Source: Firmicutes bacterium UBA2598 (GTDB taxonomy: Bacteria > Bacillota > PH28-bin88). Taken from it: a stretch of 64,000 bases of DNA. Positions 11,368 to 20,882 of the stretch are shown piece by piece; position 1 is the first letter of the stretch, and each line of letters begins with the position of its first letter. The notes below the pieces were generated by a model. That model was not told the DNA's origin, did not search any database, and was given only the letters and a program-made list of their open reading frames with translations. The translations under genes and the position numbers were made by a program. Location of the stretch: the NCBI GenBank assembly GCA_002339345.1, contig DDKM01000069.1, positions 21,973 to 85,972 of the forward strand, in the 5' to 3' direction.

Positions 11368-11535
11368 CCTATCCCCTCCATCGGCATGTTTCGTCCTTTA
11401 ACGACGACAAGCCCATTATAACATGGGTGTTCCGGCGGATGGGATGGCATTTGCTGTCACCTGGACTGTCCCTATTCAGGGGATTATGTTATAGTTAGCG
11501 GAGGGAAGATTTTCATCAAGGGGGAGAGGTTGGCC

Positions 11536-12174
11536 ATGGAACCCAGGGTAGAACTTGTCCGGTGGACACCCGACGCCGACCGGCTGGCCATGGAAGCGGC
11601 GGCCATTTGCTATGATACGGAACCGGACCCGGCGGTAATTCGCTTCTGTATTAAAAGCGGGCACCACTCGGTACTGGAACACAATGCCTTTACATTTAAG
11701 ATCTGGGTTGCCCGGGTCATCAGCCAGCAGTTCACCCGGCACCGGCTGGCTTCTTTTTCCCAGCGTTCTCAACGCTACTGTGTGGAAGACGCCTTTGCCT
11801 ATTATACTCCACCGGAAATTGCCAAACAGCCGGAAATCTGCGCCCAGTGGCACGATTTCCAGGCCCGTATCCAGGAATTTTATAATCAGATGATTCAAAA
11901 GGGGATACCGGCGGAAAGCGCCCGGATGGTGTTATCCAACGCCACAGAAACGGTATTCTACATGACCATGAACGCCAGGGAGCTACGGCATTTTTTCCGC
12001 CTACGCCTGTGCCGCCGCGCCCAGCGGGAGATCCGGCTCATCGCCTGGCGGATGCTGGAACAGGTGCAGGGTGTGGCCCCCCTGTTATTCGCGGACATTG
12101 ACTACCCCTGCAAAATGGCGGGCAGCTGTGACCAGGGCAAGATGTCCTGTGGCCTCATCAAGGCCAAAGACTAA
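11536..12174 (+). CDS. thyX: FAD-dependent thymidylate synthase ThyX
   Basis: Carries the ThyX signature RHRLASFSQRSQRY. I prefer the ATG at 11536 (GGGGGAGAGG RBS) over the TTG at 11530 given in the track. Confidence 0.92.
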   Translation: MEPRVELVRWTPDADRLAMEAAAICYDTEPDPAVIRFCIKSGHHSVLEHNAFTFKIWVARVISQQFTRHRLASFSQRSQRYCVEDAFAYYTPPEIAKQPEICAQWHDFQARIQEFYNQMIQKGIPAESARMVLSNATETVFYMTMNARELRHFFRLRLCRRAQREIRLIAWRMLEQVQGVAPLLFADIDYPCKMAGSCDQGKMSCGLIKAKD

Positions 12175-13712
12175 TGGTACCTTACCCCGTAAGAAAGGGT
12201 TTTCAGCTTCTCCGCCCGGGGACCGGCCTTTAACACCGTCCCCGGGTGGACGGTATCCGCGATGATCCACTTACCGCCGGGCACCACCACCTCCGTGGCC
12301 GCTTCCGACGGACTGCCCAGTTCCCGCACCTTGACATCACCACCGGCCCTGATGCTGCCATTGCGGAAAGTGCCCGGCCGGCCGTCGATGGTGACGGTAT
12401 CGCCGGCATAAATCTCGGTATAATAGGCTCCCTTGCCCATCACCCGCACCATACCGCTGGCTTCCAGCCTGGAGTTCTGGGCATAGGCCACAGTAATACT
12501 GGATTTCCTGTTCTCCTGGGCCTCCACCGCATCGGCAAACCGTCGGGACTCCTGCCGGAAACGATCGATGAACTCCGCCATTTCCCCGAGCTTTTTAAAG
12601 GATACCGGCCCCAGGCCGGTCATTCTCTTCTGAGCATCCACCACCACCGCCATAATGCCTTCCAGATTCACAATTTCCTGGGACCGGGACTGGGCCTTGA
12701 TTTCATCTAATAGATCCACCAGGGACTGCAGGGCAGAAGCCACGTGGGTATATTTCTTCTCCAGCAGCAGTTTCAGCAGCACTCCCTCCCCAAACTGGAT
12801 TAACTGCGGGTTAGCTCCCACGACAGGGTTTTCCTTTAACTGGTATGCTGCATCCAATAACTCCTGCAGGAGGCTGCCGATTTCCGCTGACTGCTCCACC
12901 ACCTTTTTATACAGTACCACAGAACCACCTGCCCTGATGGTGCTACTCAGCACATTTTGGTGAATTTTCACGTCTCCACCGGCATAGATAACCGCATGGG
13001 AAACGGTGCCCATTACCTCCACCTGCCCCAGGGCTTCCACCGTCATTCCCTCCGCTACCCCGCCCTTAATCACCAGGTCGCCCCGGAAACGGATATGGCC
13101 GATGGTGTGATCTACATTGCCGTTAATTACATGGACTGGGTAAACAGCAAACAGGGGACCGTTCTGCTCCGGCCGGCCGTTGATGGTGGCAACCACCCGG
13201 GACCCGTCCGGCTCCACCTCCGCTCCCTGCCCTGCCTTCAACACCACATCCCGAGGCTTTGGCGGCGGGACCGGCTGTCCCAGCACATTGGTGCCCGGCA
13301 CCCCCTCCTCCGGTGGAATGCGGATCCCCAACACCTCGCCGGGGGCTACGCTGATGATGCCCGCAAAACTAACCATCTCCGCCTGCCGGGCTTCCTCCTC
13401 CCTTTGCTGTTGTTTCTCCCGGAACACACACCTGATGGAGGCATCCCTTCCCGGTTGTGGCGGGTTGCCCCGAGCTACAGGGATCTCTTGCCCCAAATGA
13501 TTTAATGCCTTTTCCACCAGTTCCGGGTCAATCCCGAACACAACGCCCTTTTCCTCAAGAACCGCCAGCACAGCCTCCCTTGTCAATTCAGGCGAAGCAT
13601 GCTCACCGTCATCCACCTGGTCTTCCAGCAGTTGGGGCGGTTTTGGCAAACTAACAAAGGCTGTCATTTTATCCGCTGAGATGCGAATCCTGATCCCCAG
13701 ATCGTTACCCAT
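12171..13712 (-). CDS. DUF342 / FapA (flagellar assembly protein A) family protein
   Basis: The ORF is open to 13880, but the upstream part covers a riboswitch and terminator. I prefer the ATG at 13712 with its AAAGGGGTGA RBS (MGNDLGIRIRISADKMTAFVSL...). The C-terminal repetitive beta-helix-like segments (GDVKIHQNV..., GGSVVLY..., GDTVTIDG..., GGDVKVRE...) are typical of DUF342. Confidence 0.8.
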   Translation of the reverse strand: MGNDLGIRIRISADKMTAFVSLPKPPQLLEDQVDDGEHASPELTREAVLAVLEEKGVVFGIDPELVEKALNHLGQEIPVARGNPPQPGRDASIRCVFREKQQQREEEARQAEMVSFAGIISVAPGEVLGIRIPPEEGVPGTNVLGQPVPPPKPRDVVLKAGQGAEVEPDGSRVVATINGRPEQNGPLFAVYPVHVINGNVDHTIGHIRFRGDLVIKGGVAEGMTVEALGQVEVMGTVSHAVIYAGGDVKIHQNVLSSTIRAGGSVVLYKKVVEQSAEIGSLLQELLDAAYQLKENPVVGANPQLIQFGEGVLLKLLLEKKYTHVASALQSLVDLLDEIKAQSRSQEIVNLEGIMAVVVDAQKRMTGLGPVSFKKLGEMAEFIDRFRQESRRFADAVEAQENRKSSITVAYAQNSRLEASGMVRVMGKGAYYTEIYAGDTVTIDGRPGTFRNGSIRAGGDVKVRELGSPSEAATEVVVPGGKWIIADTVHPGTVLKAGPRAEKLKTLSYGVRYH

Positions 13713-13735
13713 GCTATTCACCCCTTTCCAGTCCG

Positions 13736-13774
13736 TATAATACCTAAAAGCCCTCTGTCCTGAAGGCAGAGGGC
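13736..13774 (-). terminator. Intrinsic terminator serving as the riboswitch expression platform (and the only terminator after rmlA)
   Basis: On the minus strand, GCCCUCUG(CC)-loop-(GG)CAGAGGGC is followed by UUUUAGGUAUUAU. It lies about 25 nt before the RBS of the DUF342 gene. Confidence 0.75.
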
Positions 13775-13783
13775 AAACGTATA

Positions 13784-13892
13784 CCTCCAGCGGCAACCCG
13801 GCGATCTTGGCCCTGCCGATGTCCGGCAAAAGCTGTAGACCCGTAGCTTTGCGTCCCTCCCTTTCGGAAGGTTTGCCCAAAGGCGCTTAGGT
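13784..13892 (-). promoter_or_regulatory. c-di-GMP-I (GEMM-I) riboswitch aptamer
   Basis: The minus strand reads AAGCGCCUUUGGGCAAACCUUCCGAAAGGGAGGGACGCAAAGCUACGGGUCUACAGCUUUUGCCGGACAUCGGCAGGGCCAAGAUCGCCGGGUUGCCGCUGG. It contains GGCAAACC, a GAAA-tetraloop hairpin, GACGCAAAGC and a 3' GGGUUnCCG, in the same order as the Vc2-type aptamer as I recall it. Confidence 0.85.
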
Positions 13893-13989
13893 GCTTGCAT
13901 TCTGGTGGTTAAATGATTAATATATTTTTCGACGCTTTCGGACGGGCTCCTGCCAAATATTGCGTCAAACGAGTGAAAAATGTGCAAGA

Positions 13990-15054
13990 TCAATCATCCA
14001 GCAACAGGCGGGAATGGTCAGTCACCAGTAAGCGGTGGGCCTTTGGCCGCCCGGGTCCCCGGGCGATTACCGCACACCGGCCGATGACACTATCCGCCAG
14101 GCGTCCGGCCTCCCGCAAAACAGCCCCTTCCATCACAATGCTCTGCTGTACCTCCACCCCCAAAAGCCTGCTTTTGTTCCCAATGGAGGTATATGGCCCC
14201 ACATAACTGTTGACAACTTCACAGCCCTCACCGATAATGACCGGTCCGCAGATTACGGAATTCCGGATCCTGGTACCACCCCCTACCGCGACCTTGCCCT
14301 GGATCATGGAGGCGGCATCCGACTGACCGCCCATTTGGCCTGCCAGCCGGTCCAAAAGGTAGCGGTTGGCGTCCAGCAGATCATCCACCAGTCCGGTATC
14401 CTTCCACCACCCCTGCAGGGTATGGGCTGTTACCTGGGCCTGATCCTCCACCAACACCTGGATGGCATCGGTTATTTCCAGTTCATTGCGCCAGGAAGGG
14501 GTGATGCGGTTGATGGCAGAAAATATTTGCGGTTGAAAAAGGTAGACACCGATCAGGGCCAGGTTGCTGACCGGCCGGGCTGGCTTCTCTACCACCCTGA
14601 TCACCCGGGAATTCTCCACCTCCGCCACCCCGAACAGGCGAGGATTCGCCACCGGAGTAACCACCACCAGGGCCTGGCAGTCCTCCCGGTAAAATCGCTG
14701 GATGATCTGTGACAGGTCTTCCTGCAGTAAGTTATCCCCCAAGTACAGCATGAAGGGATCATCTCCCAAGAACGGCCTAGCCACTAAAACGGCGTGGGCC
14801 AAACCCAAGGGTTCCTCCTGGTGGATGTAGGTTACCTTTACACCAAATCGCTGCCCGTCTCCTATCGCCGCCATGATCTCCCTGCGGGTATCACCCACCA
14901 CCAGGCCGATTTCCCGGACACCAGCCTGAGACATGCCCTCCAGGATATAATAAAGGATGGGCTTGTTGGCAACCGGCAGCAGCTGTTTGGCACAGGCGTA
15001 GGTCAGGGGCCGCAGGCGGGTTCCCTTACCACCGCTTAAAATCAGGCCTTTCAT
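13990..15054 (-). CDS. rmlA: Glucose-1-phosphate thymidylyltransferase, long form with a C-terminal left-handed beta-helix domain
   Basis: I prefer the start at ATG 15054 (GGGAGGTGG RBS), giving MKGLILSGGKGTRLRPLTY (nucleotidyltransferase G-loop). The C-terminus has hexapeptide repeats. It is the last gene of the rml cluster. Confidence 0.85.
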   Translation of the reverse strand: MKGLILSGGKGTRLRPLTYACAKQLLPVANKPILYYILEGMSQAGVREIGLVVGDTRREIMAAIGDGQRFGVKVTYIHQEEPLGLAHAVLVARPFLGDDPFMLYLGDNLLQEDLSQIIQRFYREDCQALVVVTPVANPRLFGVAEVENSRVIRVVEKPARPVSNLALIGVYLFQPQIFSAINRITPSWRNELEITDAIQVLVEDQAQVTAHTLQGWWKDTGLVDDLLDANRYLLDRLAGQMGGQSDAASMIQGKVAVGGGTRIRNSVICGPVIIGEGCEVVNSYVGPYTSIGNKSRLLGVEVQQSIVMEGAVLREAGRLADSVIGRCAVIARGPGRPKAHRLLVTDHSRLLLDD

Positions 15055-15074
15055 GGTCCACCTCCCGTCCGATG

Positions 15075-15527
15075 CTAACCATCCTGCCGGTCCCACTTAT
15101 AGGGAATGGTGCCAGCATGGGGATCCATCCGCAGTTCATCGGGCTGCTGGTGGTTGTAGGGTCTGTCGGGGCAGTTCATCACCAGCACCTCCCCGGGGCC
15201 GATAGCCTTGAAGCCGTGCCATATACCTGGGGGTACCTGTACCAAGAGGGGCCGGTGTTCCCCCATAAACACCTCCAGGATTTCCCCCCTGGTCTGGCTT
15301 TCCGGCCGCTGATCATATAAGACCACCTTGGCCATCCCGCTAATTACCGCAAGGTTATCGGTTTGCAGCTGGTGACAGTGCCAGGCCTTGACCACCCCCG
15401 GGTAGGCAGTGGTGACATATACCTGGCCGAAACCCTTAAACAAATCCTCATCCCGGCGGAGTATTTCCGTCAAACGTCCCCGCTCGTCTGGGATCACCCG
15501 CAGATTCTTGATCTTGACCCCCTCCAT
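15075..15527 (-). CDS. rmlC: dTDP-4-dehydrorhamnose 3,5-epimerase-like cupin (short form)
   Basis: 150 aa cupin lying between rmlB and rmlA. Its start overlaps the rmlB stop (TAATG). The sequence resembles the short RmlC-like/WxcM family. Confidence 0.75.
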   Translation of the reverse strand: MEGVKIKNLRVIPDERGRLTEILRRDEDLFKGFGQVYVTTAYPGVVKAWHCHQLQTDNLAVISGMAKVVLYDQRPESQTRGEILEVFMGEHRPLLVQVPPGIWHGFKAIGPGEVLVMNCPDRPYNHQQPDELRMDPHAGTIPYKWDRQDG

Positions 15528-17742: not shown

Positions 17743-19230
17743 ATGATTCATCCCGATTACAACACATATTTGCACCTTTTCCGGCCGGACGGTTTGGTTC
17801 CCCTCTGGATGGACCTGGTGGCGGATCTGGATACCCCTGTTTCCCTGTACCGGAAACTGTGTCCAGGCAGCAGCCATTCCTTTTTGCTGGAGAGCGTGAC
17901 CGGCGGTGACCAGGTGGCGCGCTACTCCTTCATCGGGCTGGAACCCATGGCGGTCATCACCAGTAGGGGCGGGGTAATTCAGACGAATCAGAACGGCCGC
18001 CGCCAGTGCGCACAGGGGCAACCCCTCGCCTACCTGTCCGAGCTTTTGACATCTTATCATGTGGAGCCCTTGCCGGGCCTACCCCGCTTCTTCGGCGGAG
18101 CGGTGGGTTATTACGGCTATGACCTCAGCCGGTGCCTGGAAAAACTGCCCCAGCTGGCCCCCGACGACCTCAACCTGCCGGAATGCTATGCCATCATCCC
18201 GCGCCTTTTATTGGCCTATGACCATGCCCAGCGCCGGCTGAAAATCATCGCCCTGATCCAGGCAGGGAAGGATCCCAGCCGCACCTACCGGGAGGGGGAG
18301 GATCTCATCCACCGGACGGTGGATCTCCTACACCGGCCCATCACCGCGGACAGTCCGGTTCTCCCCCTGGGCAAAGGCCCGGAACTGGGGAACAATTACG
18401 CAGTCTGCAATACCGACCAGGAGCGATTTATCCAAAATGTGCACCGGGCCCTGCAGTACATCCGGTCGGGAGATATTTTTCAGGTGGTGCTTTCACAACG
18501 GTGGCAGCGGCCTTATAGCGGCGATCCCTTTATGGTCTACCGCACCCTGCGGGCCATCAACCCATCGCCCTACATGTTCTATCTAAACTTCCCGGAGGTG
18601 CAACTGGTGGGCGCCTCACCGGAAATGCTGGTACGGGTGGAGGGTGGTGAGGTGAGATACCGGCCCATCGCAGGTACCCGCCCCAGGGGAGCCACAGATG
18701 AGGAGGACCTGCGGTTGGCCCGGGAGTTGGCTGCTGACCCCAAGGAGCAAGCGGAACATGTTATGCTGGTAGATTTGGGACGTAACGACCTGGGCAAGGT
18801 ATGTGCCTACGGGTCGGTGGAGGTACCCCGGTTCATGCAGGTGGAACACTACTCCCACGTCATGCATTTGGTATCAGATGTGACAGGCAAGCTGGCTCCG
18901 GGCCGGAATGCCCTGGACGCCCTGATGGCCTGCTTCCCAGCCGGCACCGTCACCGGTGCGCCCAAGGTGCGGGCCATGGAGATCATTGAAGAACTGGAGC
19001 CAACCCGCCGCGGACCCTACGCCGGTGCGGTGGGTTACCTGGGTTTCAACGGTAACATGGACACCTGTATCACCATTCGTACCATGGTCTTTCGAAATAA
19101 TCAGGCCTTTGTGCAGGCCGGAGCGGGTATTGTGGCAGACTCCCATCCGGAGCTGGAGCATCTGGAAACATGGAACAAGGCCCGGGCACTACTGGTGGCC
19201 CTGGCCCTGGCGGAGGAGGTGCAACGGTGA
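17743..19230 (+). CDS. trpE: Anthranilate synthase component I
   Basis: 495 aa with an AAGGAGG RBS. The conserved chorismate-binding region ([30 protein letters not shown]-like [18 protein letters not shown]) is present. Confidence 0.95.
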
Positions 19231-19793
19231 TTGTTCTGATTGACAACTACGATTCCTTTACCTACAACCTGGAACAATACCTGGGTGAACTTGGCCAACA
19301 GGTAGCGGTTTACCGCAACGATGCCATTACGGTGCCGGAAATCCAGGCCATGGATCCCACCCACTTGGTGATCTCCCCCGGCCCCTGCACCCCCCTGGAA
19401 GCCGGCATCTCGGTGGAGTGCATCATCCGCCTGGCCGGCCGGGTACCCATTCTCGGTGTATGCCTGGGTCATCAGAGCATTGGCGCGGCCTTTGGCGGCC
19501 GGGTGGTCCGGGCCAGGGAACCGGTACACGGCAAGACTTCCCTGATTTATCACGACGGACAAGGGGTTTACACAGGCCTGCCGAACCCCTTTACCGCCAC
19601 CCGCTACCACTCTCTGGTACTGGACCCCTTCACCCTGCCCCCCTGCCTGGCGGTAACCGCCCGGACGGTGGACGGCACAATCATGGGCGTACGGCACAGG
19701 GAGTTACCCATCGAGGGAGTACAGTTCCACCCGGAGTCCATTCTTACCCAGGAGGGAAAACGCCTGCTGGCCAACTACCTTACCCAGAACTGA
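19227..19793 (+). CDS. trpG: Anthranilate synthase component II (glutamine amidotransferase)
   Basis: I prefer the GTG at 19227, which overlaps the trpE stop (GTGA) and has a GGAGGAGG RBS. The product begins [14 protein letters not shown] and carries the catalytic GVCLGHQ. Confidence 0.9.
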
Positions 19794-19859
19794 CTAATCT
19801 TTAAGGAAGGCATTGCCCTGATGGGACACAACTGGAAAATGAAAAAGGAGGAGAGCAGA

Positions 19860-20882
19860 GTGGAGTTGAGAAAAGCGCTGGCCCGGATTACCGCGGGCCA
19901 ACACCTGACCGAGGAAGAAGCCCTGGCGGTAATGGAGGAGATGATGACGGACAAAGCCACTCCAGCCCAGATCGGGGCTTTCCTGGTGGCCCTGAAAATG
20001 AAGGGGGAAACCGTAGAAGAAATCACCGGCATGGCCCGGGCCATGCGGGCCAAAGCCACCCCTTTGGAAACCGGCCTGCCCAATATCATGGATACCTGCG
20101 GCACTGGCGGGGATACCCGGAATACCTTCAACATTTCCACCACCGCCGCCTTTGTCATCGCAGGGGCTGGTGTGCCGGTAGCCAAACATGGAAACCGGGC
20201 AGTTTCCAGCCGTTGCGGCAGTGCCGACTTGCTGGAAGCCCTGGGTGTACCTATCTCCCTTTCCCCTGTTGACACCGCCAAGTGCCTTAAAGAGGTGGGA
20301 TTGGCATTCCTCTTTGCCCCCGTCTTCCATCAGTCCATGCGTTTTGCCGCCGCACCCCGCCGGGAGCTGGGACTGCGCACGGTTTTTAATATTTTGGGTC
20401 CCCTGACCAACCCCGCCGGAGCCACCTGCCAGGTATTGGGGGTTTATGACCACTCCCTGACAGGGGTAATGGCCTCTGTGCTAGGCCGGCTGGGCTGCCG
20501 TAGAGCCTTCGTCTGCCATGGGTATGACGGCACCGATGAGGTCTCCATTTCCGGCCCCACCCGGGTCTCCATGCTCCGGGAAGGTGAAGTGGTTACCTTC
20601 GATTTACACCCGGGTGATGCGGGGATTGCCACTGCAGACATGGAAACCATTCAAGGGGGCGGGCCGGAACAGAACGCCCGCATTACCATGAGCATCCTGG
20701 AAGGCCGCAAGGGGCCCTGCCGGGATGTGGTGGTGCTGAACGCCGGTCTCGGCCTAGTTGCCGCCGGCCTGGCGGAAAACCTGCGGGAAGGGGTGGATCT
20801 GGCCTGTTACAGCCTGGACAGCGGCAAGGCCCTGGGTAAACTGGAAGCCCTTGTAGCCTTCGGTAAGGGGTGTGCAGCATGA
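19860..20882 (+). CDS. trpD: Anthranilate phosphoribosyltransferase
   Basis: Contains the GTGGD motif (DTCGTGGDTRNTFNIST) and KHGNRAVSS. The ORF is open from 19821. I prefer the GTG at 19860 (AAGGAGGAG RBS, typical ~340 aa length), but the start remains uncertain. Confidence 0.88.
   Translation: MELRKALARITAGQHLTEEEALAVMEEMMTDKATPAQIGAFLVALKMKGETVEEITGMARAMRAKATPLETGLPNIMDTCGTGGDTRNTFNISTTAAFVIAGAGVPVAKHGNRAVSSRCGSADLLEALGVPISLSPVDTAKCLKEVGLAFLFAPVFHQSMRFAAAPRRELGLRTVFNILGPLTNPAGATCQVLGVYDHSLTGVMASVLGRLGCRRAFVCHGYDGTDEVSISGPTRVSMLREGEVVTFDLHPGDAGIATADMETIQGGGPEQNARITMSILEGRKGPCRDVVVLNAGLGLVAAGLAENLREGVDLACYSLDSGKALGKLEALVAFGKGCAA

Follow-up and report, generated by a model that had tools for sequence, protein, structure and literature searches.

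The window analysed here is the whole 64-kb stretch (64,000 nucleotides, nt) of contig DDKM01000069.1 from Firmicutes bacterium UBA2598, and our subject is an RNA element on its minus strand, at 13737..13887, directly ahead of a fapA (DUF342) gene. Along the minus strand the genes run rmlD, rmlB, rmlC-like and a nucleoside triphosphate (NTP) transferase gene (RmlA-like), followed by the element and fapA; past fapA lie a convergent thyX, a D-Ala-D-Ala carboxypeptidase gene, cheW, cheA, cheB, flgM, flgN, flgK and a flagellin-family gene, probably flgL. We read the element as the 5′ leader of fapA, a genuine and ordinary class-I riboswitch of the RF01051 family for cyclic di-GMP (c-di-GMP) that controls the gene by premature termination of transcription, and put the probability of this reading above 0.9. 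The locus is laid out as follows, with gene products in amino acids (aa).

13990-15096, minus strand: NTP-transferase (RmlA-like) gene
13888..13989, minus strand: gap of 102 nt from the stop codon of the NTP-transferase gene to the aptamer, the expected place of a promoter
13789..13887, minus strand: c-di-GMP-I (GEMM-I) aptamer, from the RF01051 match and covariation
13737..13774, minus strand: intrinsic terminator (hairpin and U-rich tail), from a terminator scan, folding and shuffles
13774-13750, minus strand: terminator hairpin GCCCUCUGCC-UUCA-GGACAGAGGGC, -17.0 kcal/mol alone
13749-13737, minus strand: U-rich tail UUUUAGGUAUUAU, from the terminator scan
13719..13729, minus strand: ribosome-binding site (RBS) GGAAAGGGGUG, read from the sequence, ending 6 nt before the start codon
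12171..13712, minus strand: fapA (DUF342), 513 aa, ATG at 13712, from Pfam matches and homolog N-termini
11530-12174, plus strand: thyX (flavin-dependent thymidylate synthase), convergent to fapA

When the window was searched with cmscan against 4227 Rfam families, a single match at gathering level was returned, to RF01051 (c-di-GMP-I) at 13789..13887 on the minus strand (66.7 bits, E 7.2e-11, gathering score 35); no T-box or other RNA family reached its Rfam gathering score elsewhere in the 64 kb. The alignment is not truncated, spanning model positions 1-87 of 87, and the GEMM-I elements GACGCAAAGC and GGGUUGCCG are both present in the minus-strand sequence of the aptamer. The 3′ end of the aptamer lies 76 nt upstream of ATG 13712, on the same strand as fapA and with the terminator in between. 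Its parts can be placed as follows, all on the minus strand.

13877-13871: GGCAAAC motif
13877: equivalent of G20, a G, unpaired just before the closing GC (RF01051 alignment; model column 14, invariant in 7/7 aptamers)
13876-13875 with 13852-13851: closing GC/GC pairs of P1a (RF01051 alignment)
13871-13866 with 13861-13856: 6-base-pair P1a hairpin CCUUCC/GGGAGG
13865-13862: GAAA tetraloop capping the P1a hairpin
13850: A of GACGC-A-AAG, which we take, from the RF01051 alignment and the Vc2 structures, to be the equivalent of A47, the intercalating base
13848-13838 with 13806-13795: P1b (RF01051 alignment)
13833-13830 with 13813-13810: distal stem of P1b
13814..13829: extra hairpin UUGCCGGACAUCGGCA, about 15-16 nt, lengthening distal P1b (cmscan insertion)
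13793/13792: equivalent of C92, within the CC after P1b (RF01051 alignment)

The element is not confined to this contig. Database loci of FapA homologs, for which a locus search with an alignment of six close FapA sequences was also made, are given here as L numbers. Seven independent lineages have an aptamer of GEMM-I type ahead of FapA: the window itself, L001/L007, L003/L004, L006/L010 (Clostridiales bacterium PH28_bin88), L005/L008, L014 and L029. The FapA of L029 is a distant paralog, only 28% identical and set in an unrelated neighbourhood, and still has both aptamer and terminator. Some 15 further FapA loci whose upstream sequence was long enough gave no aptamer with Rfam and/or our own covariance model (L009, L013, L015-L018, L021, L022, L025-L028 and L030-L032), among them the second FapA paralog of the L006 genome and that of the cultured Oceanobacillus damuensis; the link between riboswitch and FapA is therefore specific to some FapA clades and not family-wide. 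Distant riboswitch-free paralogs, including the second PH28_bin88 copy and the one in Oceanobacillus damuensis, were seen within clusters encoding STAS, SpoIIE-phosphatase and HATPase_c domains (L026 1-3670, L027 1-3342, L030 819-4410), and such partner-switching (anti-sigma-kinase-like) surroundings suggest a different, protein-level regulatory input for those copies of FapA.

Taken together, the seven FapA-linked aptamers support the proposed helices by covariation, in a sample of seven sequences of which three are closely related. Over 22 pairs, 97.4% of pair cells hold standard pairs, a share that drops to 22-48% in controls slid by 1-3 columns; six pairs show compensatory two-sided changes, in twelve cells, and the covariation score was reached by none of 500 shuffles. 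Under a covariance model built from the seven, the window aptamer scores 84.2 bits. The extra hairpin at 13814..13829 is found in the window only, with gaps at its place in all six relatives, and the tetraloop-receptor region, as judged by sequence, reads UCUACAG...CCAAGAU in the window against a consensus of CUAAg...uAuGa, the relatives having CCAUGAC.

The second component, the terminator, is likewise shared. In the window its hairpin begins 14 nt past the aptamer, the local segment folds at -20.3 kcal/mol (z = -3.0), and a hairpin and U tail as good as this were found in 0/100 shuffles of the same 80 nt. Our strict scanner, which demands a perfect stem and a loop of <=8 nt, missed bulged or long-loop hairpins in the relatives, and their leaders were therefore scanned with a tolerant, shuffle-controlled search for a hairpin with a U tail. 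Each of the six leaders tested proved to have a terminator of -12 to -22 kcal/mol, 5-44 nt beyond the aptamer, matched by 0/100 shuffles in five of them and by 7/100 in L005; for L029, GUAGCC...GGCUAC followed by seven U can be read directly from the sequence, so that a terminator follows the aptamer in seven of seven FapA leaders. In no leader does it share nucleotides with the aptamer helices, the spacer being 9-17 nt. Control by premature termination thus has good support. Between terminator and start codon there are anything from about 25 to about 180 nt (~130 in L001 and L014, ~180 in L029), which makes a conserved RBS-masking mechanism unlikely; in the window the RBS lies only ~8 nt beyond the U-rich tail, and a similar GGAAAGGGGUG is also found upstream of the FapA start in L029. 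A small conserved hairpin sits between aptamer and terminator in L001 (486-495, CGC-UAAA-GCG), L003 (3948-3957, CGU-GAAA-GCG) and L014 (2359-2368, CGC-UUAA-GCG), where one C-to-U change keeps G-U pairing; it has no counterpart in the window.

The product of the downstream gene carries FapA_N (PF20250; 138.4 bits, cut-off 27, E 2e-40) and FapA (PF03961; 111.5 bits, cut-off 31, E 7.5e-32) domains, and its nearest database homologs, all from uncultured Bacillota, are 44-52% identical. A first-pass annotation of this DNA, made from the letters, had proposed that a DUF342/FapA gene near che and flg genes is preceded by a GEMM-I aptamer and a dedicated intrinsic terminator. The minus-strand sequence it quoted and the GEMM-I elements it named occur as written in 13700-13990; its aptamer call agrees with the RF01051 score of 66.7 bits against a gathering score of 35, its terminator with the scan and the 0/100 shuffles, and its gene with the two Pfam matches and the confirmed neighbourhood. 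The central proposal thus stands, and is strengthened by the six other lineages.

Other architectures of the protein were met in passing. A Jag_N domain (PF14804) is fused N-terminal to FapA_N in L005 4001-5971, L025 249-2237, L030 2001-4067 and L031 2001-3944; in L025 and L031 the Jag_N-FapA gene is directly followed by cheW and further che genes and has no riboswitch, and the L005 form has one. The PH28_bin88 FapA at L006 3400-5020 (= L010 2501-4111) is annotated as 339 aa, with an antisense 148-aa open reading frame (ORF) over its 5′ part, but tblastn covers residues 1-513 of the window protein, which makes a mis-annotation or a frameshift likely.

How ligand binding might be coupled to termination is less clear-cut than the presence of the two parts. 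With c-di-GMP bound, the aptamer would be folded and the terminator 5′ arm free, its hairpin would form, and RNA polymerase would stop before fapA. With c-di-GMP absent, part of the aptamer would pair with the spacer or the terminator 5′ arm and the polymerase would read through; the partner may be the GGGCAAAC core or the P1b 3′ strand in the window, and in the relatives it would as a rule be the 3′ strand of P1b or that of P1. FapA would then fall at high c-di-GMP, in keeping with the way c-di-GMP generally represses flagellar motility and with the C. difficile flgB leader. We favour this OFF sense because no part of the terminator falls within the aptamer and both can form at once: in six leaders the computed coupling of aptamer and terminator ranges from about 0 (+0.01) to -0.66 kcal/mol and is never meaningfully antagonistic. 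On present evidence OFF is no more than the most likely polarity. Two candidate antiterminators can be drawn in the window.

13771..13778, minus strand: candidate antiterminator (i) GUUUGCCC, overlapping the first 4 nt of the terminator 5′ arm
13809..13818, minus strand: candidate antiterminator (ii) CGGCAGGGCC, the P1b distal 3′ strand, complementary to GCCCUCUGCC at 13774-13765

The first is perfectly complementary, over 8 nt, to the aptamer core GGGCAAAC at 13878-13871, the segment containing the G20 equivalent; the chance expectation is, by our estimate, ~0.03. When the transcript is cut short at the terminator loop, its minimum free energy (MFE) fold contains the GGGCAAAC x GUUUGCCC pairing and is 7.0 kcal/mol more stable than the fold constrained to the aptamer; in the window this pairing is energetically the better competitor of the two. 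Nevertheless it is not conserved in the relatives and is no better than in shuffles (191/400). The second pairing, CGGCAGGGCC x GCCCUCUGCC, had been put forward in the first-pass annotation as the antiterminator, and an OFF logic built on GCCCUCUGCC and GGCAGGGC; the duplex does exist (-13.6 kcal/mol) and the logic is plausible and fits a trend seen across the lineages, but in the window the pairing does not rise above chance, 120/1000 shuffles being as good.

That trend concerns the P1b 3′ strand, which most leaders offer as the best alternative partner for the terminator 5′ arm. When its pairing with the terminator 5′ arm or loop was compared with shuffles, 12/1000 were as good in L001, 22/1000 in L014 and 37/1000 in L029, the three related L001-type leaders giving 12, 80 and 22/1000. 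Combined over five lineages the trend has p = 0.015-0.036, which is only suggestive. The L005 leader is the clearest single case, since there the terminator arm GGCCUCUCC is the pairing partner of the P1 3′ strand CCAGAGGUC, even in the full-length MFE fold; as modelled, it has a textbook three-part OFF-type design.

Several observations weigh against the mechanism as we have drawn it. The P1b 3′-strand test is non-significant in the window (120/1000), in L006 (371/1000) and in L005 (472/1000), and it is a narrower test made post hoc. In the unbiased test, the spacer, 5′ arm and loop were shuffled, any aptamer partner was allowed, and the constrained energy was set against the MFE at the terminator loop and aptamer-by-platform duplexes were computed, with 400 shuffles each. 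It found no excess complementarity in any leader (window, 191/400 by the energy difference, ddG, and 301/400 by duplex energy), and for this reason we claim no specific antiterminator, GGGCAAAC/GUUUGCCC included. Full-length equilibrium folding predicts the terminator whether or not the aptamer is folded, and switching would therefore have to be kinetic. The U tract of the window terminator is short (UUUU, then A), and the aptamer scores 66.7 bits under RF01051 where the relatives score 79-88, a difference that we ascribe to its deviant receptor (CCAAGAU) and the P1b insertion. Among characterised systems, the B. thuringiensis Bc2 riboswitch in the cap leader is an ON switch, and in Bc1, in the mcpE leader, the terminators were reported to unfold upon c-di-GMP addition (PMC11218506).

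These last examples bear most directly on the leading alternative, that the same riboswitch and terminator work with the opposite polarity, c-di-GMP preventing termination and so inducing FapA, which would place the protein on the sessile side of the switch or make it a brake on flagellar function. Bc2 shows that a class-I ON switch with a terminator exists, Bc1 that a terminator ~17 nt downstream of an aptamer can be unfolded (PMC11218506), and the unbiased test supports no particular antiterminator. In L006, moreover, a long-range helix GUCAGC/GCUGGC that flanks the aptamer, as read from the sequence, would overlap the terminator 5′ arm. An ON switch is nonetheless hard to square with leaders in which no terminator nucleotides are shared with aptamer helices and coupling is never antagonistic, with the double use of the P1 3′ strand as antiterminator in the OFF-type design of L005, and with the pairing of aptamer 3′ strands with the terminator 5′ arm across lineages. 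A gene of flagellar-assembly type in a che/flg cluster would also be expected to fall as c-di-GMP rises (PMC11477304). We regard an ON polarity as unlikely, if the most probable of the alternatives.

A somewhat less probable alternative holds that the hairpin at 13774-13750 serves chiefly for constitutive termination or attenuation, perhaps ending the rml transcript or damping fapA, with the ligand acting on translation or RNA stability or having little effect. In its favour, the terminator scan found no terminator-like site on the minus strand between 13990 and the aptamer, so that the rml-like genes have no other terminator behind them, and the 102-nt gap yielded no promoter, no consensus match for sigma-A or sigma-D there rising above shuffles. 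The prediction of the terminator in both aptamer states at equilibrium fits as well, as do the RBS lying ~8 nt after the U-rich tail and the finding that Bc1 hardly changed downstream expression in vivo (PMC11218506). Against this, the riboswitch tracks FapA and not rml: across the relatives the upstream genes differ and are unrelated to rml, aptamer and terminator accompany FapA all the same, and L003 has a separate terminator of its own upstream of the leader. The first-pass suggestion that this same hairpin gates read-through from rml is accordingly one of its less secure parts. A terminator right after the aptamer in seven of seven leaders has the look of an expression platform, and the spacing from terminator to RBS is not conserved (~130 nt in L001/L014, ~180 nt in L029), which speaks against a conserved RBS-masking mechanism.

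It is very unlikely that the aptamer senses another cyclic dinucleotide, such as 3′3′-cyclic GMP-AMP (3′3′-cGAMP) as in GEMM-Ib, or a variant ligand. GEMM-I variants of altered specificity do exist (PMC6140456), and RF03167, a variant model, gives the best score for the FapA-linked aptamers of L005/L008 and L029. In class-I aptamers the two guanines of the ligand are recognised separately, one by G20 and the other by pairing with C92, and cGAMP-sensing relatives carry A20 (PMC6140456); the window and the six relatives all have G at this position, and the columns equivalent to G20, A47 and C92 are invariant across the seven. GACGC-A-AAG likewise keeps its A in all seven, at a position that is G in the RF03167 consensus, and the preference for RF03167 reflects a short P1b and the modelled P1, not the bases of the binding site. 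The ligand-contacting positions of the window aptamer are thus of c-di-GMP type, and from its sequence it is predicted to bind c-di-GMP. We treat the L005/L008 and L029 aptamers as ordinary class-I members too, despite these scores. RF03167 (c-di-GMP-I-GGC) is the best match at L005 3862-3945, L008 1945-2028 and L029 1172-1253, and aptamers of this kind, best under RF03167 and keeping the canonical A, could get misfiled as specificity variants.

Practically nothing is left of the reading that the region is protein-coding, either as a 91-aa ORF at 13718..13993 (minus strand) or as an extension of FapA from TTG 13880: both frames are open in the window and the public call P0001 takes the long form, but no Pfam family matches the 91-aa ORF, in 5/5 relatives tested its frame ends 18-57 nt, and the 569-aa frame 75-135 nt, beyond GGCAAAC, conservation tracks RNA helices with compensatory changes, and homolog N-termini fit ATG 13712, which has a strong RBS. 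We rejected it on the lack of a Pfam match and the closed frames, the latter also agreeing with the first-pass reading of this stretch as an RNA element. Because both frames are closed in the relatives tested, the ORF and the 569-aa call P0001, which starts at TTG 13880 and runs over the terminator and most of the aptamer, are artefacts. FapA homologs align from residue 1 at ATG 13712, which is almost certainly the true start of a 513-aa protein.

Since the convergent thyX comes next, fapA is effectively monocistronic. The order fapA-thyX-cheW-cheA recurs in L001, L003 and L004; the L006 gene calls lack thyX and, like those of the window, put a carboxypeptidase gene between fapA and cheW. In L001 (2272-2955), L003 (5575-6516) and L004 (2728-3561) thyX is again convergent to fapA and lies between it and cheW; its 3′ end overlaps that of fapA in the window (by 4 nt) and in L003/L004, and an antisense or termination interplay at these shared 3′ ends is possible. 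Candidate sigma-D/FliA promoters, GCCGAATA some 60 nt upstream of the aptamer in L001/L014 and GGCGAATA in L003, were rejected, since shuffled sequence scored as well and no match occurs in the window. Further afield, ORFs at 17743-20882 (plus strand), divergent from the rml-like genes, have translations that by eye resemble trpE, trpG and trpD (anthranilate synthase components I and II and anthranilate phosphoribosyltransferase), and the region 180-2481 holds several ORFs of 119-337 aa on both strands without a Pfam match.

With Vc2 of Vibrio cholerae, the type example of RF01051, the window aptamer shares the two-hairpin architecture, the GAAA tetraloop and the G20, A47 and C92 bases. It differs from Vc2 in the 15-nt insertion in distal P1b, the CCAAGAU receptor region and an intrinsic terminator of Bacillota type; the expression platform of Vc2 is not known to be terminator-based. 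The closest functional parallel to the proposed OFF sense is found in C. difficile, where class-I switches, that of the flgB leader included, are transcriptional OFF switches and high c-di-GMP leads to a loss of motility (PMC11477304). The flgB-leader switch, Cdi1_3 (Cd1), resembles the present one in placing a class-I aptamer and a terminator ahead of motility-linked genes; however, Cd1 governs an early flagellar operon of 29 genes, sigD among them, whereas the window switch precedes fapA as a single gene and its polarity is a prediction. Bc1 and Bc2 are, like it, class-I aptamers of Bacillota with intrinsic terminators downstream, and in Bc1 the first terminator starts ~17 nt after the aptamer and the target is chemotaxis-related (PMC11218506). 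Bc1 nevertheless has two terminators, a long platform and opposing transcriptional and translational effects, where the platform in the window is short and has a single terminator.

As for the protein, FapA of Vibrio vulnificus is sequestered by EIIA-Glc away from the flagellated pole and recruited by HubP (PMC7914778; references in PMC9061725). The window protein has the same FapA_N and FapA Pfam families and a flagellar link, the likeness being one of shared families only; a part for it in flagellar assembly or polar placement is suggested by genomic context, namely the che and flg genes downstream and the recurring fapA-thyX-cheW-cheA order. Control of the Vibrio vulnificus protein is post-translational, whereas that of the window fapA is predicted to act at the RNA level through c-di-GMP. 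Our search of the literature library for a link between a riboswitch and FapA or DUF342 found only coincidental matches, and the pairing, conserved in seven lineages of uncultured bacteria, is apparently undescribed.

In conclusion, what is known of the riboswitch class itself is unchanged: pipelines based on Rfam would find the element, and it would not surprise a specialist. The public annotation can be corrected, as the 569-aa call swallows the riboswitch and the 91-aa ORF is spurious. More speculatively, and we hold this to be doubtful, FapA/DUF342 may be a dedicated and recurrently recruited output of c-di-GMP in uncultured Clostridia-like Bacillota. If so, the riboswitch would have been retained or gained ahead of two FapA clades sharing only 28% identity and lying in unrelated neighbourhoods, and c-di-GMP would enter the motility decision at FapA and not at the flagellar structural operon; in the boldest form of the idea, the switch would be ON and FapA a c-di-GMP-induced brake or re-localisation factor instead of an assembly factor. 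FapA/DUF342 proteins are widespread and barely studied outside Vibrio. The conserved riboswitch is genomic evidence that the second messenger of the motile-to-sessile transition sets the level of FapA in these bacteria, and it provides a concrete functional hypothesis for the DUF342 family in Bacillota.

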